Source: Acinetobacter wanghuae (GTDB lineage: Bacteria; Pseudomonadota; Gammaproteobacteria; Pseudomonadales; Moraxellaceae). From it: a stretch of 32,000 nt of DNA. Of the stretch, positions 7,605 through 32,000 are shown piece after piece (position 1 is the first letter of the stretch; each line of letters opens with the position of its first letter). The notes under the pieces are model-generated. The model saw only the letters and a list, made by a program, of their open reading frames with translations. It made no database searches and was not told where the DNA came from. The position numbers were made by a program, and so were the translations under genes. Where the stretch lies: contig NZ_CP045650.1 of assembly GCF_009557235.1 (NCBI RefSeq), positions 2,130,001 to 2,162,000 of the forward strand, written 5' to 3'.

Positions 7605-7647
7605 CTAGGGTTTTACTCACTTATATTAGCCATTGAAACGGTATGCA

Positions 7648-8364
7648 TTACATACCGTTGGTTTCTTTGACAAACAAATAACCTTTACTACGTACGGTTT
7701 TAATACGTTTTGGATTTTCCGGATCATCACCAATTTTTGGGCGAATACGTGAAATACGCACATCGATTGAACGGTCTTGACCATCATATTCAATACCGCG
7801 TAAACGCTCAAAAATATCTTCACGCGATAAAATACGACCCGCATTTGAAGCCAGCAACCATAATAAGTCATATTCTGCACTGGTGAAATCAACGAGTTCG
7901 TTATTGAGTGTAACTGAGCGACCGCCGTTATCAATCACTAAGTCATCAAATTCAATACGTTGCGCAACTTCATCTTCAGGCACTTTGTCTGTACGACGTA
8001 ACAATGCACGAATACGCGCTAAAAGCACACGCGGTTGAACAGGCTTAGCGACATAATCATCCGCGCCCATTTCAAGACCCAAGACTTGATCCATATCTTC
8101 AGTACGCGCAGTCAACATCAGAATCGGTTGATGATAATGTGGACGAACTTCACGGCAAATAGTCAAACCATCCGCACCCGGCAACATTACATCAAGTACA
8201 ACCAAGTCAGGTTGTTCAGCAACAATACGACGAATCGCACGATTACCATCTGGCTCTACCCCAACCTCTAAACCATTGCGAATCAGGTATTCCTGTGTCA
8301 AACGAGCCAAACGCTCATCATCTTCCACAATTAAAATCTTGGGTAACTTTTCTTCTTGACTCAT
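7648..8364 (-). CDS. bfmR: OmpR/PhoB-family response regulator BfmR
   Basis: 238-aa ORF with a receiver domain (ILIVEDDERL ... VVLDVMLPGADG) and a winged-helix domain (VRSKGYLF). From memory it is nearly identical to A. baumannii BfmR (MSQEEKLPKILIVEDDERLARLTQEYLIRNGLEVGVE...). Confidence 0.93.
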   Translation of the reverse strand: MSQEEKLPKILIVEDDERLARLTQEYLIRNGLEVGVEPDGNRAIRRIVAEQPDLVVLDVMLPGADGLTICREVRPHYHQPILMLTARTEDMDQVLGLEMGADDYVAKPVQPRVLLARIRALLRRTDKVPEDEVAQRIEFDDLVIDNGGRSVTLNNELVDFTSAEYDLLWLLASNAGRILSREDIFERLRGIEYDGQDRSIDVRISRIRPKIGDDPENPKRIKTVRSKGYLFVKETNGM

Positions 8365-8443
8365 ATGTTTGTCCCTTTATTAATTGGACGTATCCTTTAG
8401 AAATCCAATAGATACGATTGAATATTAACTGCAATATACACAC

Positions 8444-8458
8444 GTTTACATTGTAAAC
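8444..8458. promoter_or_regulatory. Perfect 15-bp palindrome GTTTACATTGTAAAC about 80 bp upstream of bfmR (candidate BfmR autoregulatory site)
   Basis: gtttaca (8444-8450), t, tgtaaac (8452-8458). A related inverted repeat, gtgttta-N6-taaacac, lies at 8595-8614 in the same bfmR/nrdA divergent control region. Confidence 0.35.
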
Positions 8459-8798
8459 AAGATAGCGTTCACCAAACCGATACATCAAAGTAGCATTTTG
8501 TAATATTTTATTTGAATAAATATTTAAAGTTCGCGTTTAGTTGCTGTCATTTTCCTCAACTGAATGATTTAGCGTGATATCAACTGCACAAAAAGTGTTT
8601 ACTTAAATAAACACGATTCAACTCTTTTCACTTATCCACAATGTTATCTATAAGCACTTTTATTTAGCTTTGCTATCCTACACCTTGCCCAACAAGGCTT
8701 ACATGAAAATGATAAAAACAAGGATAATTTTGAGATGGATTCTCAACAAGTTTGATCAAAATTTTTAGGCGAATGTCAATATTGATCTACCCTTAATT

Positions 8799-8846
8799 TT
8801 CCCGTATCTTGTGTTCAATTAATTTATAAACCACTAGGTCTTGTGT
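8799..8846 (+). promoter_or_regulatory. Candidate tandem NrdR boxes upstream of nrdA
   Basis: Two 16-mers end in tcttgtgt: ttcccgtatcttgtgt (8799-8814) and ccactaggtcttgtgt (8831-8846). They are 32 bp apart start to start. The second matches my remembered NrdR palindrome acaCwAtATaTwGtgt on both halves. The first matches only on its right half. Confidence 0.35.
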
Positions 8847-8932
8847 TTATCCCTCAAACACTGTGGCATGTTTTTTGCTCAGTTCAAACGGTCCATAAAC
8901 ATAAAAATAGATGACAATGGAGCTATGCTAAA

Positions 8933-11767: not shown

Positions 11768-11870
11768 TTAACTAAAGGTATCGAAATCAGAAATTAGGCT
11801 ACTGACGTAGCCTCTCTGAAAATCTCTAAACGTGGCTACGTGTAGCGTAATTTTTCTGAGAGGAAAAATT

Positions 11871-12152
11871 ATGAAAAAAAGAAAAGATATCTTTGGTAGA
11901 AAAATTGATTTAACCAAAGAAGAACGTAAGTCTCTTCAAATGGTTGTAAGTTTTACAATAACAATCCTATGGGCGTTAAGATTTAAAAATTCTTATCTAG
12001 CGCATACTTTGTTTAAGTCCTTAAAATTGATTTGCTTTGAACTAATCAAATTAATTAAAAGACTATGGGAATTCAGTATTGCTATAGCGCTACCATATTT
12101 TTCGGTAAAGCTGGCAATCTATTTAAGCAATATGAGTAATCCTTTCATTTGA
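11871..12152 (+). CDS. Small hypothetical protein (93 aa from the ATG at 11871), AT-rich, hydrophobic
   Basis: GAGGA (11859-11863) lies 7 nt before the ATG at 11871, giving MKKRKDIFGRK.... The track's 106-aa version starts further upstream without an RBS. No family recognised, and composition is much more AT-rich than nrdA or nrdB. Confidence 0.3.
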   Translation: MKKRKDIFGRKIDLTKEERKSLQMVVSFTITILWALRFKNSYLAHTLFKSLKLICFELIKLIKRLWEFSIAIALPYFSVKLAIYLSNMSNPFI

Positions 12153-12181
12153 AAGGATTACCAATAACTAAGGAAATGACC

Positions 12182-12313
12182 ATGGATCCAATTACCCCAA
12201 ACTATATGTTAGGACTTGCAGCCCTGGTCATTTCCTTTGCCGTTTTGTTTTACGTCCCTGTTGCCTATTTCTGGTTGAAATCTGCAAAGGCAAAGCGTAA
12301 TCAAAATAAGTAG
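12182..12313 (+). CDS. Small single-TM peptide (43 aa), below the ORF-track length cutoff
   Basis: AGGAA (12171-12175) lies 6 nt before the ATG at 12182. The product is MDPITPNYMLGLAALVISFAVLFYVPVAYFWLKSAKAKRNQNK, one hydrophobic helix plus a Lys/Arg tail. The TAG stop is at 12311-12313. Confidence 0.3.
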   Translation: MDPITPNYMLGLAALVISFAVLFYVPVAYFWLKSAKAKRNQNK

Positions 12314-12454
12314 TGGGGATTGCGCCACAGAACAATTTTAAGGCGTTTATCGACAAAACTTAATTTTGCTTACACCTAGATGAGCGTATAGTAGGACATC
12401 TCAGCGTTGCTGGATGTCTAAATAAAAGATATAAGCAACGTAGAGAGAATTGAT

Positions 12455-13738
12455 ATGTCTATCCTAAGTTGGGACGATTTCGAAGATGATTCGCAAAAAT
12501 CGGCTGCACCTGAACTCCAGTCTGCGCCCGTCGAACCGCAAAAAGCGGCTCATACACAAGTGGTATCTGATGCACACAACGCACCGTCGAATGTGGCAGC
12601 TACACAACCCATTAGAGCCACTCAAAACCGAGGATCAAATCCAACCGATTCGTTGGCAAGAGCATCTGCTTCCCTAGAACAACTTGATGTTGCTCCGGGC
12701 TTAGAAGAGCTTGAAATGGGCGCGCAACGTGTACAAGTTGACGACAAAGCAATGATTAACTGTCGTGCTGACTTGAACCAACTTGTACCGTTCAAATACG
12801 AATGGGCGTGGCAGAAGTATCTTGACGGATGTGCAAACCATTGGATGCCGCAAGAAGTGAACATGAATCACGATATCGCGCTTTGGAAGTCTGAAAATGG
12901 CTTAACTGAAGACGAACGTACAATTGTAATGCGTTCACTTGGTTTCTTCTCGACTGCCGATTCATTGGTTGCAAACAACTTGGTATTGGCGATTTACCGT
13001 CACATTACCAACCCTGAATGCCGTCAATACATTTTACGTCAAGCCTTTGAAGAAGCAATTCATACGCACGCGTACCAATACTGTATCGAATCATTAGGTA
13101 TGGATGAAGGCGAAGTCTTCAATATGTACCGTGAAGTTCCATCAGTTGCACGTAAAGCAGCTTGGGGTCTGAAATATACGCAACAGTTAAGCGATCCAAC
13201 CTTCAAGACAGGCACACCTGAAAATGACCAAATCTTGCTTCGCAACTTGATCGCGTTCTACTGTGTACTTGAAGGGATCTTCTTCTACTGTGGTTTCTCA
13301 CAAATCTTGTCGATGGGTCGTCGTAACAAAATGAATGGTGTTGCTGAGCAATTCCAGTACATTTTACGTGATGAATCGATGCACTTGAACTTTGGTATCG
13401 ATATGATTAACCAAATCAAGAACGAGAATCCAAACCTGTGGACAACTGAGTTCCAAGAAGAAATCATTCAAATGATTCTTGAAGGTACAATGCTAGAAAT
13501 CGAATACGCACGTGACACGATGCCACGCGGTGTACTTGGTATGAATGCTGCAATGATGGAAGAATACTTAAAATTCATTGCAAACCGTCGTTTAAGTCAA
13601 TTGGGCTTACCTGAACAATTTGCTGGTGTGAATAATCCATTCCAGTGGATGTCAGAAATGATGGATTTACGTAAAGAGAAGAATTTCTTCGAAACTCGTG
13701 TTACGGATTACCAAACTGGTGGTGCGTTAAGCTGGTAA
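12455..13738 (+). CDS. nrdB: Class Ia ribonucleoside-diphosphate reductase, beta subunit (Pseudomonas-type, with low-complexity N-terminal extension)
   Basis: 427-aa ORF with di-iron ExxH motifs EEAIHTHAY and RDESMHLNF. The blocks [37 protein letters not shown] match my memory of P. aeruginosa NrdB. Confidence 0.95.
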
Positions 13739-20198: not shown

Positions 20199-20726
20199 TA
20201 AAAGATTGCCTAAAACACATTCTAAGTATGCTTATAGTACACCTTTTTTTTCATTTTGATGTAAATAATAGATAATAAGTATTAAACATATGTGGTTTTC
20301 TTATAAGAAAGTTATCTAGTTTGTGGTTTTATGTAAATACACATCTCATTGATTCAGCTATTTTTAAAAGATAGCGACTCTCAAATCAATTATATAAAAT
20401 AAAGATAAATAATAAATTTAATATAAATTTTAATTATATAACCAATAAAAATTTATTATGAAATTCACCAAAAATCTTGAATTTAAAAAGATTGCTAGTT
20501 ACTTCTTTTTTCTTAACTTAGCTAAAAAAACAGCCTTGTAAGCTTATGCCCATATATCATTATTTAACATAAATATTAAGTATTACTTAATTTCAAAAAA
20601 TAAAATCTATTACATCAAGCTCCCTCTGAGTAGGATTTTTCTATTAAACTTCTGGTAAACTAAACACTGTGTCTTATTGAAGCGACTTGAGCTGCCAAAT
20701 ATTGCACCCTTAGACCTTTTATTCAT

Positions 20727-22271
20727 CTAAATAGACTCAAAGAGCTCTACCCATTTTTTTAGAATACTAGTACTAGAAAAGTTTTGACTCAGTAATTTGG
20801 CTTGTTCGCGAATATGACTCATATTCTGTTGATCATTCAAGTATTGAATAATTTTTTGAGCGTATTGCTCTACATCACCATCTGCAATCAAATAGCCATT
20901 TTGGTTATGTTGAATCATTTCACTTGGTCCATAACGAATATCGAATGAAGTCACAGGACAGCCATTAGCAAGCGCTTCCATGATCACCAAACAAAAGGAT
21001 TCACTCTGACTGGTTAATAACAACATTGAAGCTTCTTGGAGCACTTGATTTACATCCGAAACAAAGGGCTTTAAGAAAATATGATTTTCAAGTTTTTTGT
21101 CTTTAATCATTTTCTTTAAGTTCGAATACTCTAGTCCGAAACCAAATAAATCTAAGGTCGCTTGTGGATGATGCGTAACTACACGTTCAAAAATTGAAAT
21201 GAGTAAATCTAAGCGTTTTACTTTGTCATACCGTGCCAAAGAAACGAATTTATAGGGATCAAATGTAAGATAATAATCATCAGGTCTATGCGCCAATGCA
21301 TGTGGAATCACTTTATAGTTATTATGTGCACCATAAAGTTCTTCAATATCCTTTTTCTGTCGGTGAGTCAAAATGATCAAACCAGATAATTTATCGATAT
21401 GCCTAAAATATGGTGTGTAATTTTTATTCGGTGAACTTTTTATATCATTTGGATTATTATAGTGCGCTGCATGAATTGTACCAAACATGAAGAAATTCGA
21501 AGGAATATTATCCTTCAGTAAAAGATTAAAAACATTTATACGGTCGATCAAGAAAAGATATTTCTTCCGCGGGTCAATACATAATTTTCGCTGAATTGTA
21601 TATTGAGCCAATTCGATCAAACTCTGACAACTTTGGATGACCATCCCGTGTTCATCGAATAAATGTAGATTCTGAATCACACGTTTATCCTTGTTATAGC
21701 CGTAATGAACTTGGATAACGAGTTTGCCATTCACATCAAAAAAACTCTCAGCAATAACTTTTTTTTCATTCAAAATTTGATTTGAACATAGCTTTCCATA
21801 GTCATCGTAACGACTACGACTTACGACTTGTCCATTTTCAAAAAAGTTGATATGAATGAGCTTAGAGGATTTAAATACTTCATAGCGTTTGGTTCTACCC
21901 GATGTATCTTTATATATACGATTATTGATTGAATCAAATTCAACACCATTTTCAACACATGCGGCGATTGAACAAAAATAATCGGATGACTTCTTTTGGT
22001 AATATGAAAAAAGATTAATCAATTCGATATTTTTTGTATTTTTTAATAAACAATCGCTATATAATTTTTCAAAATTTGCACGTGTATTCAAATCGTGTTC
22101 AATGGTTAAAATTTTTATTTTGTAACCATAATTTGCGAGTAACTCTGCTCGACGCAACATTGAAACTACAATACCTGTCTTATTTTCTGATATTTTAGGG
22201 TAAAGCATAAATATTTCTTTATTGCTCATATTCATTATGTATCCATATAGATTTTTATCTAAAAACAACAC
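20727..22271 (-). CDS. GT4 glycosyltransferase of the GtfA/SdgA/SdgB type (O-glycosylation of Ser-rich or Ser-Asp repeat proteins)
   Basis: 514-aa ORF. The track start at 22271 is a GTG that overlaps the upstream stop by 1 nt; ATG starts at 22235 or 22229 are at least as likely.
- The C-terminal GT-B half has the E-x7-E block SESFCLVIMEALANGCPV followed by FDIRYGPSEMIQHNQNGYLI. I remember streptococcal GtfA as ...FDVRYGN..FI.DGKNGYL.
- The mid-region GTIHAAHYNN...NKNYTPYF...LIILTHRQKKDIE resembles GtfA VVVHAEHF...WNNFYDYQ...FIVATEAQK.
- The N-terminal ELINLFSYY resembles GtfA IIWLYNFF.
- The length of about 500 aa suggests an inserted domain between the Rossmann halves.
- There is no signal peptide. 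Confidence 0.75.
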   Translation of the reverse strand: MLFLDKNLYGYIMNMSNKEIFMLYPKISENKTGIVVSMLRRAELLANYGYKIKILTIEHDLNTRANFEKLYSDCLLKNTKNIELINLFSYYQKKSSDYFCSIAACVENGVEFDSINNRIYKDTSGRTKRYEVFKSSKLIHINFFENGQVVSRSRYDDYGKLCSNQILNEKKVIAESFFDVNGKLVIQVHYGYNKDKRVIQNLHLFDEHGMVIQSCQSLIELAQYTIQRKLCIDPRKKYLFLIDRINVFNLLLKDNIPSNFFMFGTIHAAHYNNPNDIKSSPNKNYTPYFRHIDKLSGLIILTHRQKKDIEELYGAHNNYKVIPHALAHRPDDYYLTFDPYKFVSLARYDKVKRLDLLISIFERVVTHHPQATLDLFGFGLEYSNLKKMIKDKKLENHIFLKPFVSDVNQVLQEASMLLLTSQSESFCLVIMEALANGCPVTSFDIRYGPSEMIQHNQNGYLIADGDVEQYAQKIIQYLNDQQNMSHIREQAKLLSQNFSSTSILKKWVELFESI

Positions 22272-23332
22272 TATATCTTGGCAATTTTTTTACGTAAGTT
22301 TTGCGGTAAAAAATTATTCTTATACGGTGGTTGAGCCTTAATTGCTAACCATTCATAATAATCGACCTGCGCACATGCAACGGAATATGCCATAAAGCCA
22401 ACACCAGGCCCAACATTAACCTCGTAAATATAGATATCTCCATCTTGTGTAATCCCAAGGTCCAGCCCAATTGAATCCAATCTCCACGCAAATTGTTTTT
22501 GGAAATTTTGATTAAAATCATCAAATAACTGTCTGATACCTAGATTAATTTTATCCACGCTACTTGGGTAGTATTGCTCTAAAAATAGCTGTTCTCGAGT
22601 GGTGATTAATGCCCCGAGCATACCATTTGTAATATCAATCTCTTTGTTTAGATTCACGTAAGGGAAAAATTTAATGAGCTGCCATTTGCCCTCTTTCCCA
22701 CGTGTAATATGCATTCTAAAAACAGTCGTCTGTCCTAAATGAGTTTCACTTTTTAGAAATGGACTAACTGTATAACCTCTTTTGAGATTTTTTTTTGTAA
22801 ATTCTTCTAATTCACTTAAATTATATTCATGCTGTTCTTGCATTTGTTTTACTATATATACATCAGCATTCTTTTTAATTGTAACAATTCCCTTACCCTG
22901 ATTACTTGCATCGGGTTTACAAATAATCTTGCTATATTTATTTAGGCTATTTTTAATCACTGAAAAATCATTAAGCTCTAAAACCTCGATTAAATACTTC
23001 CTCAACGGTTCAACCTTATTCATAATTTTATAAACCGTTTCCTTCGTACCAATCCGATTATTTGCAAAAGGAATAAGCTCTGCTAACTTTAAGTAGCTTT
23101 CCATATCCTCTTCTTTCACAGCCAAACGATTCTGCACAACATCTGGAAAATCAAAAATCTCTTCAACAACTTTATTATTCCTTAAAGTTTTGCCCTTAAT
23201 TCTCTTATTCTTAAAATCAATATTTTTTGCAATGAATACATAAGCTTCATGTTTTTTTTGCTGAGCAACTGAAATAAAAATTTTCTCTATATCGGTTATC
23301 ACCATATTCGGTTTTAATACACCAAAAATCAT
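22271..23332 (-). CDS. ATP-grasp enzyme, YheC/YheD-like family
   Basis: 353-aa ORF. Motifs are FDFPDVVQNRL (like the YheC/D ...PDV.Y.R), IICKPDASNQGKGI (the P-loop-like ATP-grasp strand), FRMHITRGKEGKWQL, and GLDLGITQDGDIYIYEVNVGPG (the ATP-grasp C-terminal Mg/ATP motif). It has a 4-bp overlap with the upstream gene. No signal peptide. Confidence 0.7.
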   Translation of the reverse strand: MIFGVLKPNMVITDIEKIFISVAQQKKHEAYVFIAKNIDFKNKRIKGKTLRNNKVVEEIFDFPDVVQNRLAVKEEDMESYLKLAELIPFANNRIGTKETVYKIMNKVEPLRKYLIEVLELNDFSVIKNSLNKYSKIICKPDASNQGKGIVTIKKNADVYIVKQMQEQHEYNLSELEEFTKKNLKRGYTVSPFLKSETHLGQTTVFRMHITRGKEGKWQLIKFFPYVNLNKEIDITNGMLGALITTREQLFLEQYYPSSVDKINLGIRQLFDDFNQNFQKQFAWRLDSIGLDLGITQDGDIYIYEVNVGPGVGFMAYSVACAQVDYYEWLAIKAQPPYKNNFLPQNLRKKIAKI

Positions 23333-24129
23333 TTTTCATCGCTCCATTTCTGAATTATCATTAAAGCATTTGTAATATCTTTATTTCTCAACTCTATATT
23401 TTCATTATAGAAGTCAACAATATAACCTTTACATTTTTCTAATTTGAAAAATATTAATATGTTAAAAATACCTGGAACGAGGGTTCCTGTTTTAACAGCC
23501 GTTATCTTATTTTTCAGCTCAGATTCATAGGTATTTTTCACCCGAATCTCATCACCACTTTTAGAATAAAATACATGTTCCGTGATGTTAGACATTGCTT
23601 GAAATCGAGCATCCGTTAATTTCGCATCAAGAATAATTTTTAAATCTGATAAAGTTGTATATTGCAGTCGATCAGCAAGTCCATGCTCATTGACAAGATG
23701 GGTATTTATCATTCCACGCGTGCTATTGTACTGATTGATATAGCTTATAAAGTTATAGTCTTGGACTTTTTCTAAATATTTCCTTAAGACCGCAGCCGAT
23801 GTATTGCTCGAAGCAATCATTAAATTTTTGATTAAGTCTTGAACACGGTACAGCTCACCTACTTTTAGGTTATTACCACTGCCTTTTCTTACATCATCTT
23901 CAGTGACTTCCAGATATTCATCCATATCAATATTACTATTGAGTAATCTATCGAGCAGAAAAATTTTAGCTGTTGAAGCAGGCACCACCTTTCGATCAAT
24001 ATTCTTTTGATACAAGGTAAAATTCCCACCCTTTTCATACATTCTAATGAGGATATGCTTGCCTGTAAGTGACTGATTCAAACTATCTGACAGTCTAGCC
24101 ATTTTTTCGATTAATGGAATATTCTGCAT
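23329..24129 (-). CDS. Peptidase S11 (D-alanyl-D-alanine carboxypeptidase / PBP5-like) catalytic domain protein, apparently cytoplasmic
   Basis: 266-aa ORF with all three active-site motifs at family-typical spacing: S52-T-A-K55 (PASTAKIF), S107-S-N109 (IASSNTSA) and K213-T-G215 (AVKTGTL). It also has VNEHGLADRLQYTTLSDL, which resembles the S11 block NxHGL...T.A.DL. The N-terminus MQNIPLIEKMARLSDSLNQSLTGKH has no hydrophobic signal sequence, and there is no C-terminal PBP5 beta-sandwich domain. Confidence 0.75.
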   Translation of the reverse strand: MQNIPLIEKMARLSDSLNQSLTGKHILIRMYEKGGNFTLYQKNIDRKVVPASTAKIFLLDRLLNSNIDMDEYLEVTEDDVRKGSGNNLKVGELYRVQDLIKNLMIASSNTSAAVLRKYLEKVQDYNFISYINQYNSTRGMINTHLVNEHGLADRLQYTTLSDLKIILDAKLTDARFQAMSNITEHVFYSKSGDEIRVKNTYESELKNKITAVKTGTLVPGIFNILIFFKLEKCKGYIVDFYNENIELRNKDITNALMIIQKWSDEK

Positions 24130-24140
24130 TTACTAAGCAC

Positions 24141-25793
24141 TCACTCAAAATAGTTTAAGTAAGCAATGTAGCCAGACAAATTATGCTCTTGATCATCAAT
24201 ACGTGTTCTAAAGCGATCATGGCGAACATAGAAGGCATTTAATATTTTTTCAGGTTTTGCCATATACATAGCAACTTCAGGATAGAAATAGCCTGCACTT
24301 CTTTGGAATTCGACGCGTTGCTCAATGAGCTTCTTAAGCTCTTCAAATTTTGATTTTTCATAGAGCTCATCAAATCCTTGTTCTCGCATACGAATCACCA
24401 TTTTGTATGCAGACATCATCATCTCTAAAAAAGTCGCATAAGCTGTTTTGCGCTCTGCAATAAACTTCATATGTTTTAAATAATTATTTAACCCAAATTC
24501 AAAATATTTTTCTTCTGGGCATATTTTTGTAAGTTCATTGGTGCAATAACTTAACCAATGATCATGATATTTATCGTATTTCTTCTCTATAAAATGCTCA
24601 AACATCAACTTTACAGTTTGAAGTAATGTGGCATCTTGATTAATCTGATACAGTCTTAGCAGTCCTAAAGCTGCTTCTCCATCATAGTAAACGATACGGA
24701 ACTGCTCTTTAGTTTCTAAACTCGGATAGTCGAGAACATGGGTGGTTTTACCCTGATCATCAACCATATACAAAATGCCTTCAGCCAACTTCTCTGCAAC
24801 AGATTGATATTGAGCGTCTTGCGTAATCTCTTGGTATTTAGCAAACATGAAGATGGCAGCTGCGTTTGAGCCAAGCTTGATTTCAGCTTCATCTTCACCA
24901 TCAATCATAAACCCACATGACTTTTCTTCTTTGTAGAAAACTTGAATGGCGTATTCGATTGCAAGTCGGATTTTTGTTAAATATTCTTCCTTATCATCAA
25001 CTTCTAGCGTTTCTAACAAAGCATAGACTGCCGTGCAATGGCGCACCGTATTATAGCTTTTTAATTCGCGATCATAAGCTGGGAAGTATCCATAAATAAA
25101 CCTCCCATCTTCTTGAAGTTCATTATGTAAAAACGTGGCATTTTCTAGAACTAAAGAACGTATATGTGTTTTTAAGTCCGAATCTAGCTCACGCACACCA
25201 TTAACTGGTCCTGTACTTTGCAAGTTCAGCATTTTCTCATCTTCATAAAATGCTGAAACTGTATCAAATAACCAAACGTGCTTAAGTTGATCTAATTCTA
25301 AATTTTTAGTGATTGTTGGATACTTAGAATGAAGTGCGCGATTTACATTGTCTTGATCCCAAAAGGTAGGCTGATTGTAGACAATGCCCCGGATTAACGC
25401 TTTTCCATATAGCTCTTGCTCTAAGAAGCAAATCTCAAACTTTGAATCGAAACTTACACCTTTCCTAAAATGATTATTATGCATTTGGGTGTTCAGTGTT
25501 TGTTTAACATCTTGCCATGACTTTTGCTTAATATTCACAGCGATATCAAACTTTAAATACTCAGGTAGACCTCTTTTTTTATCGTACATTTTGTCCAAAA
25601 AATTAAGCGTTCTATTTAATGCTGTTTTAGCATCGGGTGCATTCGTACTCCATACTTTACAACGTGTAGTCGGTTCACCATAAGAAATAAACACCACATA
25701 AGGTGCTTGTGCAATTGTGATGAGCTCTTGATTCAACCAATCTTTTAATTTTTCTTTAAAGCTTAAATATTGACTTTGAGTAGTGATTTTCAT
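24141..25793 (-). CDS. Hypothetical 550-aa protein, first gene of the AT-rich operon; family not recognised
   Basis: Long clean ORF, 11 nt upstream of the next gene, with no signal peptide or TM segment. The C-terminal two thirds is helix-rich, with spaced aromatic and small-residue blocks (DGRFIYGYFP...YNTVRHCTAVYAL; LGSNAAAIFMFAKY; YYDGEAALGLLRLY). These remind me of alpha/alpha-toroid enzymes, but that is only an impression. Confidence 0.7.
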   Translation of the reverse strand: MKITTQSQYLSFKEKLKDWLNQELITIAQAPYVVFISYGEPTTRCKVWSTNAPDAKTALNRTLNFLDKMYDKKRGLPEYLKFDIAVNIKQKSWQDVKQTLNTQMHNNHFRKGVSFDSKFEICFLEQELYGKALIRGIVYNQPTFWDQDNVNRALHSKYPTITKNLELDQLKHVWLFDTVSAFYEDEKMLNLQSTGPVNGVRELDSDLKTHIRSLVLENATFLHNELQEDGRFIYGYFPAYDRELKSYNTVRHCTAVYALLETLEVDDKEEYLTKIRLAIEYAIQVFYKEEKSCGFMIDGEDEAEIKLGSNAAAIFMFAKYQEITQDAQYQSVAEKLAEGILYMVDDQGKTTHVLDYPSLETKEQFRIVYYDGEAALGLLRLYQINQDATLLQTVKLMFEHFIEKKYDKYHDHWLSYCTNELTKICPEEKYFEFGLNNYLKHMKFIAERKTAYATFLEMMMSAYKMVIRMREQGFDELYEKSKFEELKKLIEQRVEFQRSAGYFYPEVAMYMAKPEKILNAFYVRHDRFRTRIDDQEHNLSGYIAYLNYFE

Positions 25794-25885
25794 GACCTGT
25801 ACATGTCTATTTTTTAAAGAATTTTGTAATTAAAAGCTAACATGACTTATTTTTTTTGGCGATGTTATTTTATGTATGTTTTGTT

Positions 25886-25913
25886 TATTTATGTATATCT
25901 ATATTCGAGTCAA
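25886..25913 (-). promoter_or_regulatory. Candidate sigma70 promoter for the four-gene operon
   Basis: On the minus strand, TTGACT (revcomp of agtcaa, 25908-25913) is followed by a 16-nt spacer and then TAAATA (revcomp of tattta, 25886-25891). This lies about 95 nt upstream of the ATG at 25793 and just downstream of the adhesin terminator. Confidence 0.25.
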
Positions 25914-25923
25914 AATAAAGCGC

Positions 25924-25950
25924 ATAAAAAAGAGGCCCCTAGGGGCCTCT
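25924..25950 (-). terminator. Rho-independent terminator of the giant adhesin gene
   Basis: Perfect 20-bp palindrome agaggcccctaggggcctct (25931-25950). On the minus strand it is followed by a T-run (complement of the aaaaa at 25926-25930). It lies 24 nt after the stop codon at 25974-25976. Confidence 0.85.
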
Positions 25951-25973
25951 CTCTTTTACTGTCAATTTACTAA

Positions 25974-28900
25974 TTAATAGAGCAGCTGATTGTTTTCAAG
26001 TAAATCAGCAAGACTTACCGTTGTATTGTTTAAAACAACCAAGTTAGTAGCAGCGCCACTTAGTAAGCCTGGGCCATCTAAATCTACTCTAACTACAGCG
26101 TTCGCACCGCTTTGAGTAACTGTTACGAAGTCTTCAATATTACCTGCATCAACACCGCTCTCTTTGAGTAAGCCTCTCAGATCTAGGGTATCGCCTTGTG
26201 CGAAATTAAAGTCTGTCCATACATCGTTACCCAATGTACTGGTGTTACCTCCACTACTAGTATTCGCCAACAGATCATAGATCACCGTATCTGCGCCTAG
26301 GCCTGTGGTAAAGGTATCATTAGCAGATGTACTGAATACAAACTGACCTTCTTTAGTCGCTGTAATGTCAATGCTGAGCGTTGAGCTTGATGTACTTCCA
26401 TCAATACCAGTGATGGTGTAAGCAATTACATCATCAGCAACATCAGCAACATTTACACCTACTTTATTGGTATAGCTATAGTCACCATTACCAGAAACGG
26501 TCAAGAAGCCTTGTGCTGTTTCAATGGTCTCTGTGTCATGTCTACCTAGAGTAACGCCACCAATGGTCAATTTAGTAAAGCCACCACTTGTGATGTCAGC
26601 CCCTGCACCATCATACAGGTTACCTGTTACTGTTGGATGTGATTTAGTCACTACATCCGCAATAACATAAGTACTACCAGTAATATCTACTTGCAGATTT
26701 GGAGCAGAAGAACTCAATGTCGTTGAACCCTTCTGAATATTATAGTCAAAACTATAATTACCTGCCTCTAAAGTAGATAGGTCAATATCTATTAAAGAAG
26801 CTCCAAGAGTTTTTTCTGAAGTAGTGAGTACCTTCGTATAATAACCCGTACTAGCATTATAGGTACCACCAAAATTAGCATTTTGTACAGCAACGTTATC
26901 TTTCAATAAACGATACGTAACCGTGATAGTTGCTGAACTAACTACTCCTGATGTCTCAAGGGTCAGCGTTGCATTACTTATCTCATTTCCTAATGTAAAT
27001 GATGTTGAACCACCGCCTGAAGCTTGCCCTGAAGTGGTTGCAGTACTAACACTATTAGCAAAGGTGAGATCAATAAAATCATAACGATCATTGGTCAAGA
27101 CTGCTACTGCATTCACATCAGGATTTGCTTCAACAACCGTCACTGTACCGTCTTGTGCAGGATTTGCATCATCCCAAACAATTTCAGTACCATCAGCATC
27201 AACACGAATATTAAGGACTGCAGTTTCAGTATGGTAGCCATCATCAATGGTATAGGTGAAGCTATCTACCTTGCCATAAGAAGATGATTGCCCATTACCT
27301 ACATAGCTAAATGAACCATCAGGTTTAATGGTGAGCGTACCATGTGCACCCTCAATTGTTGTTCCTGCTGCAGTGACAGATGCTGTCGTACCTGTTTCCG
27401 AAGCAATTTGGGTTAATACCGCAGTGCTACCATGTGCCTCAGCAACCCAATCATCAGCACCTATACCGTTATTGTCTAAAGATACATTGCCCTCTACACG
27501 ACCATAATCATGTAAAGTTGAATCTGTGATCGTGATATCAGTATTACTCAACACACCTACATTCAGTAAACTGGTTAACAAATCTGTAATAGGTCCTGGC
27601 TCAGGTGGAGCAAGCGCAAGAGTATATAGACCTGCTGGTATGTCATTAAACTGTACATTTATCGCAGAGATATTTGTGTTTAGACCTTGCGGAGTAAATG
27701 TTACTGCATCTTGAGCTATCGCTACAATTTCACCTGTAACAATATCAATGACATTTAGGTCAACTGTATAAGCCCCATCTAGTAAACCTACAAGAGAACC
27801 AAGATCTGTCAGACTACCATCCACTCTAACAGTAATATCTTGGAATGAATTCTCTTTAACTTCAAACGTCAGTGCAGTCGTTCTAGGTAATAATTTCACA
27901 TCAATGGTTTGTCCTAAAACAGAAACTGCTCCTAAGGCGAAAATATCCCCAGTTTTACCGTTTAGATTATCCTGCTCATCGAAAGCAACTGCTGTATATA
28001 GATCATCCACTGCTGCAATATCTTCTGGAATTACACCATCCGCACTTAGATCATTCTCATTCCAATCGATTGTGACACCATTTTTGGTGATACGAATGTT
28101 TAGATTAGCAGTATCTGTGTGCAGACCATCATCAATCGTATAAGTGAAGGTATCTACTTTACCAGTTACATCTCCCGACAATGGATCTAAGACATAAGTG
28201 TATGAACCATTACTAAAGATCGTCAAAGTACCATACTGACCTTGAATGGCGGTTCCTGACTCATTGACTGTTACTGGAGCTGTCACGACTTCTGATGTAA
28301 TTGCCACTAATGTTGCAGTCGCATCATGTAACTCTCCATTAATGTCATCTTGTCCAGAACCATTTTCACCATTTTCAAATACATTACCTTGCGTTTGAAT
28401 CTGATTATGTTGAAGAGATGCTGAAATCTCCATTTCCAGTCCAGATAACAAACCTGTACCAGCAACAAGACCAGTTAAAGCAGTTAATAAACCACCTACT
28501 TCAGTTGAAGAAAGTGCAACTGTGTAATTACCTGGAGGTAAACCTTCAAAATTAACTTGGTTGGCTGTAATTGTAGTTGTAACTAGACCTCCATTACCAA
28601 CAAGCTGAGGAGTTAAGGTTACTGCATCCTGTGCAACGGCCACAATATCACCAGTATCACGATCGATAATAAGAAGGTCGGCAAAAGTGCTAGGACTTTG
28701 ACCAAATAACAATGAGCTCAATAATCCATCGACTATTCCTGTTAAAGCCTCAATACTTACAGAACCGGTTTGGCCCGTCACATCAACAGTTATGTCCTGC
28801 GTTGAATTTGGGGCAACAGTAAAGTTAAGAGGATTATTTGTTGGCAACAAGCTCACATTAATTATTTCTGCAAGCGCATCAAGCTCTAAGAATGCCGATG

Positions 28901-31900
28901 AACTGCCTGTCATAAGTATATTGTTGACTACAGTAGCGTCACTTAAATTCACTGAATCTAGGTCGTCAACTGCATCGATGTCTGATTCCACATCAGAGTC
29001 AGAGTCGCTGTCAGAGTCACTATCGCTGTCAGAGTCAGAGTCGCTATCGGAATCAGAATCGCTGTCGCTGTCTGAGTCAGAGTCAGAATCGCTGTCGCTG
29101 TCAGAATCAGAGTCAGAATCGCTGTCTGAGTCAGAATCGCTGTCGCTGTCAGAATCAGAGTCGCTATCGCTGTCAGAATCAGAGTCGCTATCGGAATCAG
29201 AATCGCTGTCGCTGTCTGAGTCAGAGTCGGAATCACTGTCGCTATCAGAATCAGAGTCGGAATCGCTATCGCTGTCTGAGTCAGAATCGCTGTCGCTGTC
29301 TGAGTCGGAATCGCTATCAGAGTCAGAATCGCTGTCGCTGTCAGAGTCGGAATCGCTGTCGCTGTCAGAGTCGGAATCGCTGTCGCTGTCAGAGTCGCTG
29401 TCGCTATCAGAATCAGAATCGCTGTCAGAGTCAGAATCGCTGTCAGAGTCAGAATCGCTGTCAGAGTCAGAATCGCTGTCAGAGTCAGAATCGCTGTCGC
29501 TATCAGAGTCGGAGTCGCTATCGCTGTCAGAATCGGAGTCGCTATCAGAGTCAGAATCGCTATCGCTGTCAGAATCGGAGTCGCTATCAGAGTCGCTGTC
29601 AGAATCAGAGTCAGAATCGCTGTCGCTGTCAGAATCAGAGTCGGAGTCGCTATCAGAGTCAGAGTCGCTATCAGAATCGGAATCACTATCGCTGTCTGAG
29701 TCAGAATCGCTGTCACTATCAGAGTCAGAGTCGCTGTCAGAGTCGGAATCGCTATCGCTGTCAGAATCGGAGTCGCTATCAGAGTCGGAGTCGCTGTCAG
29801 AGTCAGAGTCGCTGTCAGAGTCAGAATCGCTGTCGCTATCAGAGTCGGAATCGCTGTCGCTATCAGAGTCAGAATCGCTATCGGAGTCAGAATCACTATC
29901 GCTGTCTGAGTCACTGTCGCTGTCTGAGTCGGAATCACTATCGCTGTCTGAGTCAGAGTCGCTGTCGCTATCGGAGTCAGAGTCGCTGTCAGAGTCAGAG
30001 TCGCTGTCAGAGTCAGAATCGCTGTCGCTATCAGAGTCGGAATCGCTGTCGCTATCAGAGTCAGAATCGCTATCGGAGTCAGAATCACTATCGCTGTCTG
30101 AGTCACTGTCGCTGTCTGAGTCGGAATCACTATCGCTGTCTGAGTCAGAGTCGCTGTCGCTATCGGAGTCAGAGTCGCTGTCAGAATCAGAATCACTGTC
30201 GCTATCAGAGTCGGAGTCGCTATCAGAATCGGAGTCGCTATCGCTATCAGAGTCGGAGTCGCTATCAGAATCAGAGTCGCTGTCGGAATCAGAGTCAGAA
30301 TCGCTGTCGCTATCAGAATCAGAGTCGCTATCGCTATCAGAGTCGGAATCGCTGTCGCTATCAGAATCGGAGTCGCTGTCAGAGTCAGAATCGCTGTCTG
30401 AGTCAGAGTCGCTGTCGCTATCAGAGTCAGAATCGCTGTCGCTATCAGAGTCAGAATCGCTGTCGCTATCAGAATCAGAGTCGCTGTCGCTATCAGAGTC
30501 AGAATCGCTGTCGCTATCAGAGTCGGAATCGCTGTCGCTATCAGAGTCAGAGTCGCTGTCGCTGTCAGAATCAGAGTCGCTGTCGCTATCAGAGTCGGAA
30601 TCGCTGTCGCTATCAGAATCGGAGTCGCTGTCAGAGTCAGAATCGCTGTCTGAGTCAGAGTCGCTGTCGCTATCAGAGTCAGAATCGCTGTCGCTATCAG
30701 AATCAGAGTCGCTGTCGCTATCAGAGTCGGAATCGCTGTCGCTATCAGAATCGGAGTCGCTGTCAGAATCGGAGTCGCTGTCAGAGTCAGAATCGCTGTC
30801 GCTATCAGAGTCGGAATCGCTATCGCTGTCAGAATCGGAGTCGCTGTCAGAGTCAGAATCACTGTCGCTGTCAGAGTCGGAATCGCTGTCACTATCAGAG
30901 TCGGAATCGCTATCAGAGTCGGAATCGCTATCAGAGTCAGAATCGCTGTCGCTATCAGAGTCAGAATCGCTGTCAGAGTCAGAATCGCTGTCGCTATCAG
31001 AGTCGGAATCGCTGTCGCTATCAGAGTCAGAGTCGCTGTCGCTGTCAGAATCAGAGTCGCTGTCGCTATCAGAGTCGGAATCGCTGTCGCTATCAGAATC
31101 GGAGTCGCTGTCAGAGTCAGAATCGCTGTCTGAGTCAGAGTCGCTGTCGCTATCAGAGTCAGAATCGCTGTCGCTATCAGAATCAGAGTCGCTGTCGCTA
31201 TCAGAGTCGGAATCGCTGTCGCTATCAGAATCGGAGTCGCTGTCAGAATCGGAGTCGCTGTCAGAATCGGAGTCGCTGTCAGAATCGGAGTCGCTGTCAG
31301 AGTCAGAATCACTGTCGCTGTCAGAGTCGGAATCGCTGTCACTATCAGAGTCGGAATCGCTATCAGAGTCGGAATCGCTATCAGAGTCAGAATCGCTGTC
31401 GCTATCAGAGTCAGAATCGCTGTCAGAGTCAGAATCGCTGTCAGAATCAGAGTCACTATCGCTGTCAGAATCGGAATCGCTATCGCTGTCAGAATCGGAA
31501 TCGCTATCGCTGTCAGAGTCGGAGTCGCTGTCGCTATCAGAATCAGAGTCGCTGTCAGAGTCGCTGTCAGAGTCAGAATCGCTGTCGCTATCAGAGTCGG
31601 AATCGCTGTCGCTATCAGAGTCAGAATCGCTATCGGAGTCAGAATCACTATCGCTGTCTGAGTCACTGTCGCTGTCTGAGTCGGAATCACTATCGCTGTC
31701 TGAGTCAGAGTCGCTGTCGCTATCGGAGTCAGAGTCGCTGTCAGAATCAGAATCACTGTCGCTATCAGAGTCGGAGTCGCTATCAGAATCAGAGTCGCTG
31801 TCTGAGTCAGAGTCGCTGTCGGAATCAGAGTCAGAATCACTGTCGCTGTCAGAGTCGGAGTCGCTGTCGCTATCGCTATCAGAATCAGAGTCACTGTCGC

Positions 31901-32000
31901 TGTCTGAGTCGGAATCGCTGTCGCTATCAGAATCGGAATCACTGTCGCTGTCTGAGTCAGAGTCGCTGTCGCTGTCAGAATCGCTGTCAGAATCAGAGTC
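25974..32000 (-). CDS. Giant Ser-Asp-repeat, T1SS-type (Bap/RTX-like) surface adhesin; 5' end lies beyond the window (2008 codons visible)
   Basis: The 1005-aa track ORF begins at a GTG (cac, 28989-28991), but the same frame stays open upstream. The preceding codons are atc/aga/gtc/aga/gtc/gct, which read GAT TCT GAC TCT GAC AGC on the minus strand. The phase, with plus-strand codon starts divisible by 3, still reads Asp/Ser at 31980-32000. The C-terminal part has VCBS-like blocks ([14 protein letters not shown]...[11 protein letters not shown]) and a T1SS C-terminal target domain. Confidence 0.85.
25977..26336 (-). other. Type I secretion C-terminal target domain (about the last 120 aa of the adhesin)
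   Basis: [23 protein letters not shown]...[22 protein letters not shown]...[25 protein letters not shown]...[23 protein letters not shown]-stop. The pattern (D.I.DF...GD.LDL..LL ... vd.dG.g ... i.L ... L) matches the T1SS C-terminal target domain of the VCA0849 subclass as I remember it. Confidence 0.7.
27114..28976 (-). repeat. Two tandem, diverged modules of about 300-320 aa within the adhesin, each ending in a VCBS-like block
   Basis: Module 1 (aa 6-326) and module 2 (aa 327-626) align block by block:
- AVDDLDSV / AVDDLYTA
- [24 protein letters not shown] / [24 protein letters not shown]
- [18 protein letters not shown] / [18 protein letters not shown]
- [10 protein letters not shown] / [10 protein letters not shown]
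- [14 protein letters not shown]...[25 protein letters not shown] / [14 protein letters not shown]...[25 protein letters not shown]. Confidence 0.8.
28992..32000 (-). repeat. Uninterrupted Ser-Asp dipeptide repeat tract, at least 1003 codons, truncated by the window edge
   Basis: Only the codons GAC/GAT (Asp) and TCT/TCA/TCC/AGC/AGT (Ser) occur. Strict alternation is mirrored in the shadow ORF 28958-31942, which alternates [T/I] with [L/Q/P/A/V] without exception. Higher-order identical DNA blocks lie inside the tract (see findings). Confidence 0.9.

Follow-up and report, generated by a model that had tools for sequence, protein, structure and literature searches.

The Ser-Asp tract and its reading frame

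In the window (the whole stretch of Acinetobacter wanghuae DNA analysed in this work, 32,000 nucleotides long), a single open frame of 2008 codons was found on the minus strand, ending with a stop codon at 25974-25976. Translation from window base 32000 yields a perfect (Asp-Ser)n tract of 1003 residues (28992..32000, minus strand), in which 502 Asp and 501 Ser residues alternate without interruption. Within the window the tract is N-terminal to a non-repeat region of 1005 residues (25974..28991, minus strand) of the same ORF; it extends off the window edge, and the N-terminal continuation of the protein lies beyond. An earlier note on this DNA had described an uninterrupted Ser-Asp tract of at least 1003 residues running off the window edge, with Ser encoded by TCT, TCA, TCC, AGC and AGT and never by TCG; the tract is real, and our codon counts agree with that description.

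Asp is specified by GAC (296 codons) and GAT (206), and Ser by AGC (200), TCT (194), TCC (63), AGT (23), TCA (21) and TCG (0). The tract DNA is not a simple repeat: the seven codons occur in nine hexamer types, exact internal repeats reach at most 250-299 bp, and the periods detected by Tandem Repeats Finder (12, 18, 24, 30 and 42) are each a multiple of 6. This variety is accompanied by zero amino-acid changes over 1003 codons. In the tracts of other species the share of TCG ranges from 0 to 30% and that of TCC from 0 to 31%, yet there are 0-2 substitutions per 1100-1400 residues. Codons have turned over synonymously while the residues stayed constant, which indicates purifying selection at the protein level.

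TCG makes up 14.7% of the Ser codons in the housekeeping genes of the window as against none in the tract. This avoidance is local to the A. wanghuae genome, and no meaning was attached to it, since TCG is freely used in related SD tracts (up to 30% of Ser codons). Besides the coding frame, minus-strand frame 1 and two plus-strand frames are open across the tract. The 994-aa TLI-rich ORF in minus frame 1 (28958-31942) and the open plus-strand frames were rejected as by-products of the repeat; the coding frame is identified by its unbroken run into a homologous adhesin C-terminus.

It is very improbable that the tract is an assembly artefact of wrong length or frame, or that the gene is a pseudogene making no protein. 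SD tracts do break most short-read assemblies, and many related contigs end or carry N gaps there; one related locus (L001) has a frameshift between SD runs of 1111 and 133 residues, and the window itself ends inside the tract. The A. wanghuae adhesin is also missing from the protein database in which its gene neighbours are present, so the gene may be annotated as a pseudogene. Against these points, all 3009 nt are in frame, contain no codon for a residue other than Ser or Asp and are joined in frame to a conserved C-terminus, and the source contig (2.77 Mb) is as large as a complete chromosome. Intact tracts of 414-1836 residues within complete ORFs of independent genomes and metagenomes, as well as the synonymous turnover described above, likewise argue against an artefact.

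The C-terminal region of the adhesin

The 1005-residue region consists of two tandem modules of ~330 aa with VCBS/cadherin-like segments, followed by a secretion signal. It passed the cutoff of the NCBIfam model NF045619 for large adhesins of the BapA/Bap/LapF type (302.3 bits, cutoff 180, E 7.8e-90). A VCBS match (3.2e-5) and a weak Pfam Cadherin_4 match were also found, and homologues in Acinetobacter are 42-45% identical. Residues 923-1003 (25983..26225, minus strand) form a type I secretion C-terminal target domain (TIGR03661, T1SS_VCA0849; 7.9e-13, 49.4 bits, cutoff 17.6, passed). The protein ends in ...LLENNQLLY, with neither LPXTG nor a hydrophobic-plus-basic tail at its C-terminus. These matches bear out the assignment in the earlier note to a Gram-negative, Bap/LapA-type substrate of type I secretion (T1SS).

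A hairpin resembling an intrinsic terminator, AGAGGCCCCTAGGGGCCTCT followed by TTTTT (25931..25950, minus strand), can be read in the sequence 23 nt past the stop codon, where it stands between the adhesin gene and the enzyme genes described below. T1SS genes are absent from the 26 kb that follow the adhesin gene; what precedes it is beyond the window edge. The window has no LapG or LapD gene, searches of it for RNA families and tRNAs were negative, and the low-GC island has no notable repeats at its flanks.

Enzyme genes downstream of the adhesin

Just downstream of the adhesin lies a low-GC set of four genes, all on the minus strand, encoding p550, an S11-like protein, a YheC/D-type ATP-grasp ligase and a GT4 glycosyltransferase. 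p550 and GT4 are 100% identical to proteins of A. wanghuae. None of the four proteins has a signal peptide; taking into account also that the ATP-grasp enzyme needs ATP, they must act in the cytoplasm.

p550 (24141..25793, 550 aa) gave no Pfam or NCBIfam match and has no signal peptide. Its AF2 model (pLDDT 79.6) combines an N-terminal alpha/beta domain with a C-terminal (alpha/alpha)6 barrel, for which Foldseek returned cellobiose 2-epimerase/AGE and GH76 enzymes (E about 1e-6). The family comprises 1880 cluster representatives in a library of 1.84e9 proteins, and many of its members are fused to ATP-grasp, CapA, Mur ligase or GT2 domains. In every Proteobacterial context examined p550 adjoins T1SS adhesins. 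As a specific marker of X-Asp (XD) tracts it was rejected, for members of a clade at ~57% identity are encoded downstream of Ig-repeat BAPs devoid of any XD tract (an example is locus L074), and thus the gene set is not strictly tract-specific.

The S11 DD-carboxypeptidase/transpeptidase-like protein (23329..24129, 266 aa; Pfam Peptidase_S11 1.3e-18) keeps in its translation the SxxK (ASTAK), SSN and KTG motifs, lacks a signal peptide and matches DD-peptidases and PBP4 in the PDB (4e-10). The ATP-grasp ligase (22271..23332, 353 aa) was recognized by Pfam ATPgrasp_YheCD (1.1e-32); sequence search found no solved relative.

The GT4 gene (20727..22271) has an ORF of 514 aa, the annotated form being 502 aa with a start at 22235. 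In addition to Pfam Glycos_transf_1 (1.2e-34), its top NCBIfam matches were SdgA (2e-59) and SdgB (3.6e-54), the enzymes known to modify staphylococcal SD repeats. With 201.5 and 184.2 bits, respectively, these matches are far below the equivalog cutoff of 800 but are still the best in the library. The best PDB sequence match was again SdgB (2.9e-44), at 23-24% identity. The AF2 model (pLDDT 89.4) contains an insertion of about 10 beta strands at residues 111-215, and is thus predicted to have the GT-B fold of GT4 enzymes with an inserted beta-sandwich domain of the DUF1975 type. Foldseek superimposed the model on SdgB with a TM of 0.83-0.88 over 507-526 columns, insertion included, and on TarM, the teichoic-acid GlcNAc transferase, with a TM of 0.80-0.87; by predicted fold, the enzyme would be equally close to both and belong to the SdgB/TarM class.

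In SdgB the inserted domain binds SD peptides (PMC8561734). Comparison of residues R101, Y124, N126, F128, R132, K134 and R137 of the positively charged SD-peptide groove of SdgB showed that three of the six that could be aligned are kept, N126, F128 and R137 corresponding to N142, F144 and R152. Y124 is replaced by His and K134 by Val, R132 falls in a gap, and R101 was not aligned. Within the Acinetobacter/Edwardsiella GT4 family N142, the counterpart of the contact residue Asn126, is nearly invariant and R152, that of Arg137, is invariant.

Related loci and co-occurrence of the enzymes with the tracts

A genome scan yielded 26 related loci. Complete SD tracts in related loci had 1111, 1308 and 1836 residues, and tracts cut by the end of the locus or contig had at least 1142, 1398 and 1459. 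The comparison of lengths among relatives that the earlier note had called for thus gave a range of 414-1836 residues for complete tracts in other genomes and metagenomes. Moreover, SD tracts of 501 and 701 pairs have been in the literature since 2015, and "extraordinarily long", as the earlier note put it, is an overstatement for the A. wanghuae tract.

Complete relatives show where the tract is placed in the protein. Locus L042 encodes an N-terminal BapA_N domain (2.6e-44), an SDx918 tract and a 683-aa C-terminus, with an HlyD gene upstream and genes for p550, a hexapeptide transferase, S11, ATP-grasp and GT4 downstream. In L017, BapA_N is followed by SDx210, Ig-like repeats and the C-terminus, and T1SS ABC and HlyD genes lie upstream; L020 likewise has an SD tract mixed with Ig-like repeats. 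T1SS genes are adjacent in L017, L021, L025 and L042. The proposal of the earlier note that the tract replaces or supplements the Ig-like extender is supported by the tract-only layout of L042, by the two mixed proteins and by published precedent (PMC4647330).

Genes next to XD tracts were tabulated, another check suggested earlier. GT4 accompanied 20 of 30 Ser/Thr-Asp tracts and none of 23 Ala-Asp tracts (Fisher p = 2e-7; the set consists of the fetched loci and the window, includes near-duplicate loci, and the statistics ignore phylogeny). Three further Ser/Thr-Asp loci have a GT2 fused to p550, and for 10 of the 30 there is no GT4 within the available locus sequence. In L019, an AD-tract locus of Acinetobacter amyesii, p550, S11 and ATP-grasp are kept and GT4 is absent. 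GT4 genes also adjoin those of SD-containing adhesins in Edwardsiella and, in Bacillus cytotoxicus, that of a surface protein with SD/AD sequence.

These distributions bear on whether the tract is modified at all. Following the model of the earlier note, one could suppose that it is exported as an unmodified polyanion (charge about -500), which would bind extracellular Ca2+, stiffen as a tether and act as an RTX-like ratchet through the T1SS duct. Acidity and folding with extracellular Ca2+ are typical of T1SS substrates, as seen in RTX proteins, and the tract is perfectly acidic. The RTX-like sequence of the C-terminal region is weak (the HemolysinCabind match in L042 is sub-threshold), so another Ca2+-binding element could be useful, and one third of the Ser/Thr-tract loci are without GT4. 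We nevertheless consider a bare tract unlikely. In several genera these adhesin genes have genes for dedicated cytoplasmic enzymes next to them, and the association of GT4 with Ser and its absence with Ala would be unexplained if Ser were never modified; furthermore, the SD repeats of staphylococci are glycosylated (PMC8561734).

The ligases are distributed differently from GT4: ATP-grasp genes accompany 14 of the 30 Ser-type and 10 of the 23 Ala-type tracts, and a Mur ligase is found with 8 of the 23 Ala-type tracts. Fusions of p550 to a YheC/D ATP-grasp, to PGA_cap plus Mur ligase or to multiple ATP-grasp domains occur in Thiopseudomonas, Halomonas, Alcaligenes and Roseovarius; in the first three, the ones that were looked up, each fusion adjoins T1SS genes and an (A/S)D-tract adhesin. 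One could suppose from this that the gene set mainly targets Asp, with ATP-grasp, Mur-ligase and CapA-type enzymes ligating amino acids or amines to the beta-carboxylates and glycosylation of Ser as an optional extra. SD, AD and TD tracts have only Asp in common, and both the spread of the ligases over Ser- and Ala-type tracts and the p550 fusions fit such a role. Cyanophycin synthetase, which decorates a poly-Asp backbone, unites the two ligase chemistries represented by ATP-grasp and Mur-ligase domains. However, the YheC/D ATP-grasps are uncharacterised and gave no solved relative, the p550 barrel resembles sugar-acting enzymes rather than ligases, p550 also occurs with Ig-repeat BAPs lacking XD tracts, and the window contains no Mur ligase or CapA. 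We regard a gene set directed mainly at Asp as quite improbable, more so than an unmodified tract.

Comparison with known adhesins

The closest known proteins are the beta-BAPs of Acinetobacter (De Gregorio et al. 2015, PMC4647330), such as ABSDF785 and ABSDF2314 of A. baumannii SDF; their published SD tracts, of 501 and 701 pairs, stand where Ig-like repeats would otherwise be. Genus, adhesin family, C-terminal T1SS signal and a long perfect SD tract in place of Ig-like repeats are shared, and the size is comparable (at least 501 pairs here). As in the beta-BAPs, the central region consists of alternating Ser and Asp and has no Ig-like modules, its 1003 residues abutting the C-terminal region. 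The difference is in that C-terminal region: NF045618, the equivalog of the ABSDF2314 family, scored 186.6 bits (cutoff 975), and identity to the best homologue is only 42%. The protein shares the ABSDF2314-type design but has a C-terminal region of another type. The SD tract itself is thus not new but adds one more species to an Acinetobacter adhesin class described in 2015. The neighbouring enzyme gene set seems to be undescribed; the beta-BAP description is silent on downstream enzyme genes, and "glycosyl" occurs only in its reference list (PMC4647330).

Staphylococcal SD regions are about 300 aa long and glycosylated (PMC8561734), GlcNAc being added to the repeats by SdgB and SdgA. They are, as the earlier note had said, shorter; the tract here is at least 3 times longer. 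In both systems an SD stalk lies between an anchor and a ligand-binding domain, Ser is encoded by mixed AGY and TCN codons, and a cytoplasmic GT4 with a beta-sandwich insertion is encoded nearby, the present one matching SdgB over its whole length. In contrast, the Sdr/Clf proteins are Gram-positive Sec/sortase substrates with LPXTG, whereas the A. wanghuae protein is a T1SS substrate with a predicted N-terminal anchor and no LPXTG; p550, ATP-grasp and the S11-like protein have no counterpart among SdgA/SdgB. As adhesins, the two share only the stalk principle of the staphylococcal Sdr/Clf MSCRAMM family.

Adhesins of the LapA/RTX type (LapA, SiiE, alpha-type Bap) resemble this protein in C-terminus-first T1SS export, an N-terminal retention module (predicted here from relatives) and a long extender projecting C-terminal binding domains. 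Their extender is made of Ca2+-stiffened Ig-like domains, whereas here it is a disordered dipeptide polymer. The serine-rich repeat glycoproteins of streptococci also have a repetitive Ser-rich stalk and a GT4 with the same inserted domain (GtfA/GtfB). Their stalk receives its O-GlcNAc in the cytoplasm, ahead of export, as we infer for the tract, but they use accessory Sec export, their repeat composition is different, and GtfA/GtfB match the GT4 fold less well (Foldseek TM 0.67-0.72).

Proposed function

On balance, the tract is best read as the disordered polyanionic stalk of a beta-type BAP, a role that is well supported, and it probably receives O-linked sugars in the cytoplasm ahead of T1SS export. 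As in complete relatives, an N-terminal BapA_N anchor would be followed by the SD tract and then by the adhesive head, which carries the T1SS signal at the C-terminus. The head would leave the cell first, and in this anchor-tract-head layout the SD tract would therefore stand in for Ig-like extender repeats; it would be compatible with T1SS export because it needs no folding. Its length would set the distance of the head from the cell and could change in 6-nt steps with the frame intact.

Because of the neighbouring enzyme genes, the secreted tract is likely to be chemically modified, which would alter its charge, its protease sensitivity and the way it binds Ca2+. The product of the fourth gene downstream, the SdgB-like GT4, would O-glycosylate the Ser residues in the cytoplasm before export, in parallel with the GlcNAc decoration of staphylococcal SD repeats by SdgB and SdgA, from which the sugar may be surmised; p550, ATP-grasp and the S11-like protein probably add or process further modifications. 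The enzyme context thus suggests cytoplasmic modification of Gram-negative dipeptide-stalk T1SS adhesins by SdgA/SdgB-related enzymes. Several points speak against this reading: the terminator-like hairpin between the adhesin and enzyme genes, the GT4 scores far below the SdgA/SdgB cutoffs with TarM equally close by fold, the groove residues kept only in part, the Ser/Thr-tract loci that show no GT4, and the presence of p550 beside Ig-repeat BAPs. Literature searches found no experiments on any Gram-negative SD adhesin and no relevant report that SD or T1SS adhesins of Gram-negative bacteria are glycosylated or modified by ligases, and glycosylation is not known as an established feature of T1SS substrates.

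According to Hazenbos et al. in 2013, glycosylation of staphylococcal SD repeats reportedly protects against host proteases and creates a dominant antibody epitope. If the Acinetobacter stalk is modified as proposed, recombinant adhesin fragments made without the enzymes would mislead, the question would arise how a heavily decorated chain passes the T1SS, and a function would be at hand for the p550 family and the YheC/D ATP-grasps.

More tentatively, glycosylation and ligation might be combined. X-Asp tracts (SD, TD, AD) could be ribosomal scaffolds for modular cytoplasmic modification, with GT4 or GT2 acting on Ser/Thr, and ligases and p550 on Asp. The ligases would be YheC/D ATP-grasp, Mur-ligase and CapA-like enzymes, and the decoration of Asp would perhaps be cyanophycin-like. 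Such a system might be conserved across Acinetobacter, Edwardsiella, Pseudocitrobacter, Halomonas, Thiopseudomonas, Alcaligenes and Bacillus. We hold this extended scheme to be possible but less likely than not; if true, it would amount to a protein-based, teichoic-acid-like polymer threaded through the T1SS, and these adhesins would be the first heavily modified T1SS substrates. The Pseudocitrobacter locus encodes (TD)n adhesins and a GT2::p550 fusion together with LapG and LapD.

Reading frame and composition of the tract

Translation of the minus strand from base 32000 yielded a strict alternation of Asp and Ser (502 D and 501 S), in agreement with the perfect SD tract of at least 1003 residues that the earlier note had described. 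The tract fills 28992-32000 (minus strand) exactly and continues past the window edge. The same frame stays open for 2008 codons in total and runs on to a stop at 25974, the last 1005 residues being non-repetitive; the tract is thus the N-terminal side of the protein within the window. The computed mass of the unmodified in-window segment is approximately 101 kDa, and the contour length of the in-window tract would be about 340-380 nm if it were fully extended, a value that is an upper bound and not a prediction.

Three further frames are open over the tract, a minus-strand ORF of 994 aa (28958-31942) and two plus-strand frames. The minus-strand shadow ORF is TLI-rich, and the plus-strand frames over 28992-32000 read SESESL... 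and QSQSRC.... As genes all three were rejected, being by-products of the repeat alone. The coding frame is settled by its continuity with the conserved C-terminus of the adhesin. Gene callers could mis-annotate these three frames.

The DNA of the tract is heterogeneous, with nine hexamer types and a longest exact internal repeat of 250-299 bp. Tandem Repeats Finder reported periods of 12, 18, 24, 30 and 42. Because all of these are multiples of 6, slippage or unequal recombination would alter the length of the tract while always leaving frame and S/D register intact.

Codon use was as noted earlier from the sequence: GAC 296, GAT 206, AGC 200, TCT 194, TCC 63, AGT 23, TCA 21 and TCG 0. Relative to the housekeeping genes of the window, the tract prefers GAC among the Asp codons (59% vs 30%), and AGC (40% vs 10%) and TCC (12.6% vs 1.7%) among the Ser codons, whereas TCG, which makes up 14.7% of the housekeeping Ser codons, is absent. 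Despite the synonymous variety there is not a single amino acid change in 1003 codons. The SD tracts of other species have differing codon mixes (TCG 0-30%, TCC 0-31%), so that the lack of TCG, correctly observed for this tract, is specific to the genome. Impurities are few in those tracts: a single Ala among 1308 residues, a single Thr among 1398, and two Ala among 1142. Since they are equally pure in spite of their different codons, the dipeptide is conserved at the protein level. GAC and AGC are enriched in every species whose SD tract was examined, and the GC content of these tracts is 0.49-0.56 (52% in the window tract) compared to approximately 0.40 in the genomes. The codon bias of the tract could have to do with DNA stability or with the translation of long runs.

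Family, architecture and length range of the adhesin

The earlier note had predicted a Gram-negative secreted adhesin of the Bap/LapA type, exported by a type I secretion system (T1SS). This was borne out by the 1005-residue C-terminal region, which matched the NCBIfam model of BapA/Bap/LapF family large adhesins (NF045619) with 302 bits (cutoff 180), contains VCBS/cadherin-like segments and has a type I secretion target domain at its end (TIGR03661, 7.9e-13). Its nearest homologues are Acinetobacter adhesins (42-45% identity).

Complete relatives show where the tract lies in such proteins. In locus L042, a BapA_N prefix-like domain (Pfam, 2.6e-44) is followed by a short hydrophobic segment with TAAG, 918 SD pairs and a C-terminal region of 683 aa that holds the secretion signal, and an HlyD-type gene lies upstream. 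In the Acinetobacter rudis locus (L017), which has T1SS ABC and HlyD genes upstream, the order is BapA_N, 210 SD pairs, Ig-like repeats and C-terminus; in three others (L020, L021, L022) Ig-like repeats precede the SD tract and the C-terminus. From this architecture it follows that the tract stands in for the extender, or adds to it, between an N-terminal module near the cell and C-terminal domains far from it. Both the stalk role and the substitution for Ig-like extender repeats, proposed before from the sequence, thus hold, the latter also agreeing with the published view.

The peptide PLTAAGILWW is found between BapA_N and the SD tract in L042 (about 2290-2320) and in a second relative, L025. 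TAAG is the motif at which LapG cleaves LapA-type adhesins. If it is used in these two proteins, the SD tract would be the chain threading the outer-membrane channel.

The Acinetobacter BAPs were divided by De Gregorio et al. (2015) into two types, of which the alpha types carry Ig-like repeats (PMC4647330). The same work described A. baumannii SDF proteins with 501 and 701 SD pairs (ABSDF785 and ABSDF2314). It also mentioned A. haemolyticus as having AD tracts, and Klebsiella and Enterobacter as having SD-rich adhesins flanked by lap genes. Among the relatives surveyed here, complete SD tracts were 1836 (L042), 1308 (L020), 1111 (L001), 565, 423 and 414 residues long, and those cut by the end of the locus or contig reached at least 1459 (L033, A. 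pittii), at least 1398 (L026, A. corruptisaponis) and at least 1142 (L045). The tract is a member of an already described adhesin class and is not unprecedented; with at least 1003 residues it falls in the upper range of that class, and to call it extraordinarily long, as had been done, goes too far. Staphylococcal SD tracts are shorter, as the earlier note had stated (about 300 aa; PMC8561734).

Many short-read contigs stop within the SD tract or have N gaps in it. In Acinetobacter sp. Marseille-Q1620 (L001, 36-3781) a frameshift lies between SD runs of 1111 and 133 residues, and gene callers divided the adhesin into two ORFs; the frameshift reflects either an error in sequencing or a true pseudogene.

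The A. wanghuae adhesin was not found in a collection of 5.8 billion proteins, which does contain two of its neighbours (P0001, P0046). The absence may be due to annotation as a pseudogene or to the dropping of very long low-complexity products. This absence, together with the end of the window inside the tract, would fit an assembly artefact or a pseudogene, but the clean frame and the intact relatives make that explanation very improbable.

Four enzyme genes downstream of the adhesin

A classical hairpin terminator followed by TTTTT (25931-25950) lies after the adhesin stop, and four tightly packed genes start approximately 130 nt beyond it. They are contained in a low-GC island (20200-26000; 31-35% GC vs 40-45% in the flanks), which suggests that the enzyme genes were horizontally acquired. 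Signal peptides were found in none of the four products, hence all four enzymes must act in the cytoplasm.

The first gene (24141-25793) encodes a 550-aa protein (p550) that matched no Pfam or NCBIfam family. In its structural model (pLDDT 79.6) the C-terminal part is an (alpha/alpha)6 barrel, loosely similar to AGE-family epimerases and GH76 enzymes (E about 1e-6, TM 0.36-0.59). Next is an S11 DD-carboxypeptidase/transpeptidase-like protein (23329-24129, minus strand) with intact SxxK (ASTAK), SSN and KTG motifs; a cytoplasmic member of this normally periplasmic enzyme family is unusual. The adjoining gene codes for a YheC/D-type ATP-grasp ligase (22271-23332), a pairing reminiscent of D-Ala-D-Ala ligase with DD-peptidase.

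The fourth gene (20727-22271) encodes a glycosyltransferase of the SdgB/TarM class (GT4). Its best NCBIfam matches were SdgA (2e-59) and SdgB (3.6e-54), both under their 800-bit cutoffs, and the best match among PDB sequences was SdgB (2.9e-44). The model (pLDDT 89.4) superposed over its full length on SdgB with TM 0.83-0.88, including the approximately ten-stranded beta insertion, which in SdgB binds SD peptides (PMC8561734). TarM was nearly as close (TM 0.80-0.87), and GtfA gave TM 0.67-0.72; the predicted fold thus does not tell SdgB from TarM as the counterpart of GT4. Of the SdgB peptide contacts, N126 corresponds to a nearly invariant column of the GT4 family and R137 to an invariant one; some of the other contacts are not conserved. 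GT4 and p550 are each 100% identical to A. wanghuae proteins encoded on a 2.77-Mb contig.

Distribution of p550

Relatives of p550 are encoded directly downstream of Bap-type adhesins at 26 genome loci, nearly all of them in Acinetobacter. When 1.84 billion representative proteins were searched with an HMM, 1880 relatives were identified. Many of these are fused to other enzymes: to YheC/D ATP-grasp, to PGA_cap and Mur ligase with or without ATP-grasp, to several ATP-grasp domains and acylphosphatase, and to GT2. In each Proteobacterial context opened, p550 adjoins both a T1SS and a giant adhesin that carries an X-Asp tract (SD, TD or AD pairs), the exception being a clade of about 57% identity. 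These contexts include Thiopseudomonas (L037; at least 548 (A/S)D pairs, T1SS and Mur ligase), Halomonas (L038; (AD)n, T1SS), Alcaligenes (L039; at least 76 AD pairs, T1SS) and Pseudocitrobacter (L035), where two (TD)n adhesins are accompanied by LapG, LapD and a TolC-like gene. The two P. faecalis adhesins are adjacent (L035, 15924-18599 and 19239-22124) and lie next to a GT2::p550 fusion; one perfect run has about 120 TD pairs, and the locus overall about 233.

In Bacillus cytotoxicus (L040) a Gram-positive surface protein of the Sec/sortase type, with signal peptide, LPKAG motif and (S/A)D runs of 101 and 51 pairs, is encoded divergently to a p550 homologue and to a GT4 of the SdgB class (7589-9751, minus strand, and 10001-13226). 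Edwardsiella (L002) has interrupted SD repeats in a BapA_N adhesin, with T1SS and GT4, and no p550. In A. corruptisaponis (L026, 11655-15481) p550 is accompanied by PGA_cap (CapA-like) and ATP-grasp genes and then an IS transposase, a gene content which indicates that the enzyme set is modular; GT4 may have been lost or replaced there. A p550 homologue of 48% identity lies on a 1253-bp contig (28% GC) assigned to Staphylococcus rostri (L032), and is either staphylococcal or a contaminant.

The clade of about 57% identity (metagenome contigs L046-L070 and L074) is located downstream of alpha-type BAPs with Ig repeats and no X-Asp tract, such as the 3122-aa protein of L074 (475-13365), and rules out p550 as a strictly tract-specific gene; p550 is rather a gene of adhesin loci. 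In the four loci of this clade that were opened (L047, L049, L057, L074) the next gene after p550 encodes a protein of about 575 aa that has no annotation.

Enzyme type and tract type

Co-occurrence was tabulated for all fetched loci and the window (30 Ser/Thr-Asp and 23 Ala-Asp tracts), counting GT4 at 60% coverage or more. SdgB-class GT4 genes accompanied 20 of the 30 Ser/Thr-Asp tracts (three more had the GT2::p550 fusion) and none of the 23 Ala-Asp tracts (Fisher's exact p = 2e-7, uncorrected for phylogeny and with some loci near-duplicates). The difference is seen within Acinetobacter too, where an AD-tract locus (L019) has p550, S11 and ATP-grasp without GT4. ATP-grasp (14/30 and 10/23) and Mur ligase genes (1/30 and 8/23) accompany both tract types. 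Most simply, this would mean that GT4 needs a hydroxyl residue, and that the ligase-type enzymes relate to Asp, which all tracts have in common.

We consider it fairly probable that the tract serves a beta-type BAP (SD tract instead of Ig-like repeats) as a disordered stalk of variable length, compatible with T1SS export, and that its Ser residues would be O-glycosylated by the SdgB-like GT4 in the cytoplasm, before export. The analysis establishes the tract with its family, secretion signal and place in the architecture, as well as the fold and co-occurrence of GT4; the modification, its sugar and its timing we infer. Against glycosylation are the equal closeness of the GT4 fold to TarM, the third of Ser-type loci in which GT4 was not seen, and the terminator between the adhesin gene and the enzyme genes. 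The earlier proposal of a bare Ca2+-binding polyanion that also acts as an export ratchet is unlikely, being hard to square with the link between GT4 and Ser. A further alternative, that Asp side chains are ligated by analogy with cyanophycin, is attractive in view of the fusions to ATP-grasp, Mur ligase and CapA, but it is wholly inferential and we regard it as quite doubtful. What the present analysis adds is the conserved, putative modification gene set next to the SD adhesin; no description of this set was found in the searchable literature.

Remainder of the window

Positions 1-20200 are ordinary chromosome, with nuoA-F, a two-component system, nrdA/nrdB, a TonB-dependent receptor, a membrane PQQ glucose dehydrogenase and an OprB porin, and the remaining genes are consistent with an Acinetobacter chromosome. 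In three relatives (L005-L007) an adhesin and enzyme set of the same kind is also located near nrdAB.
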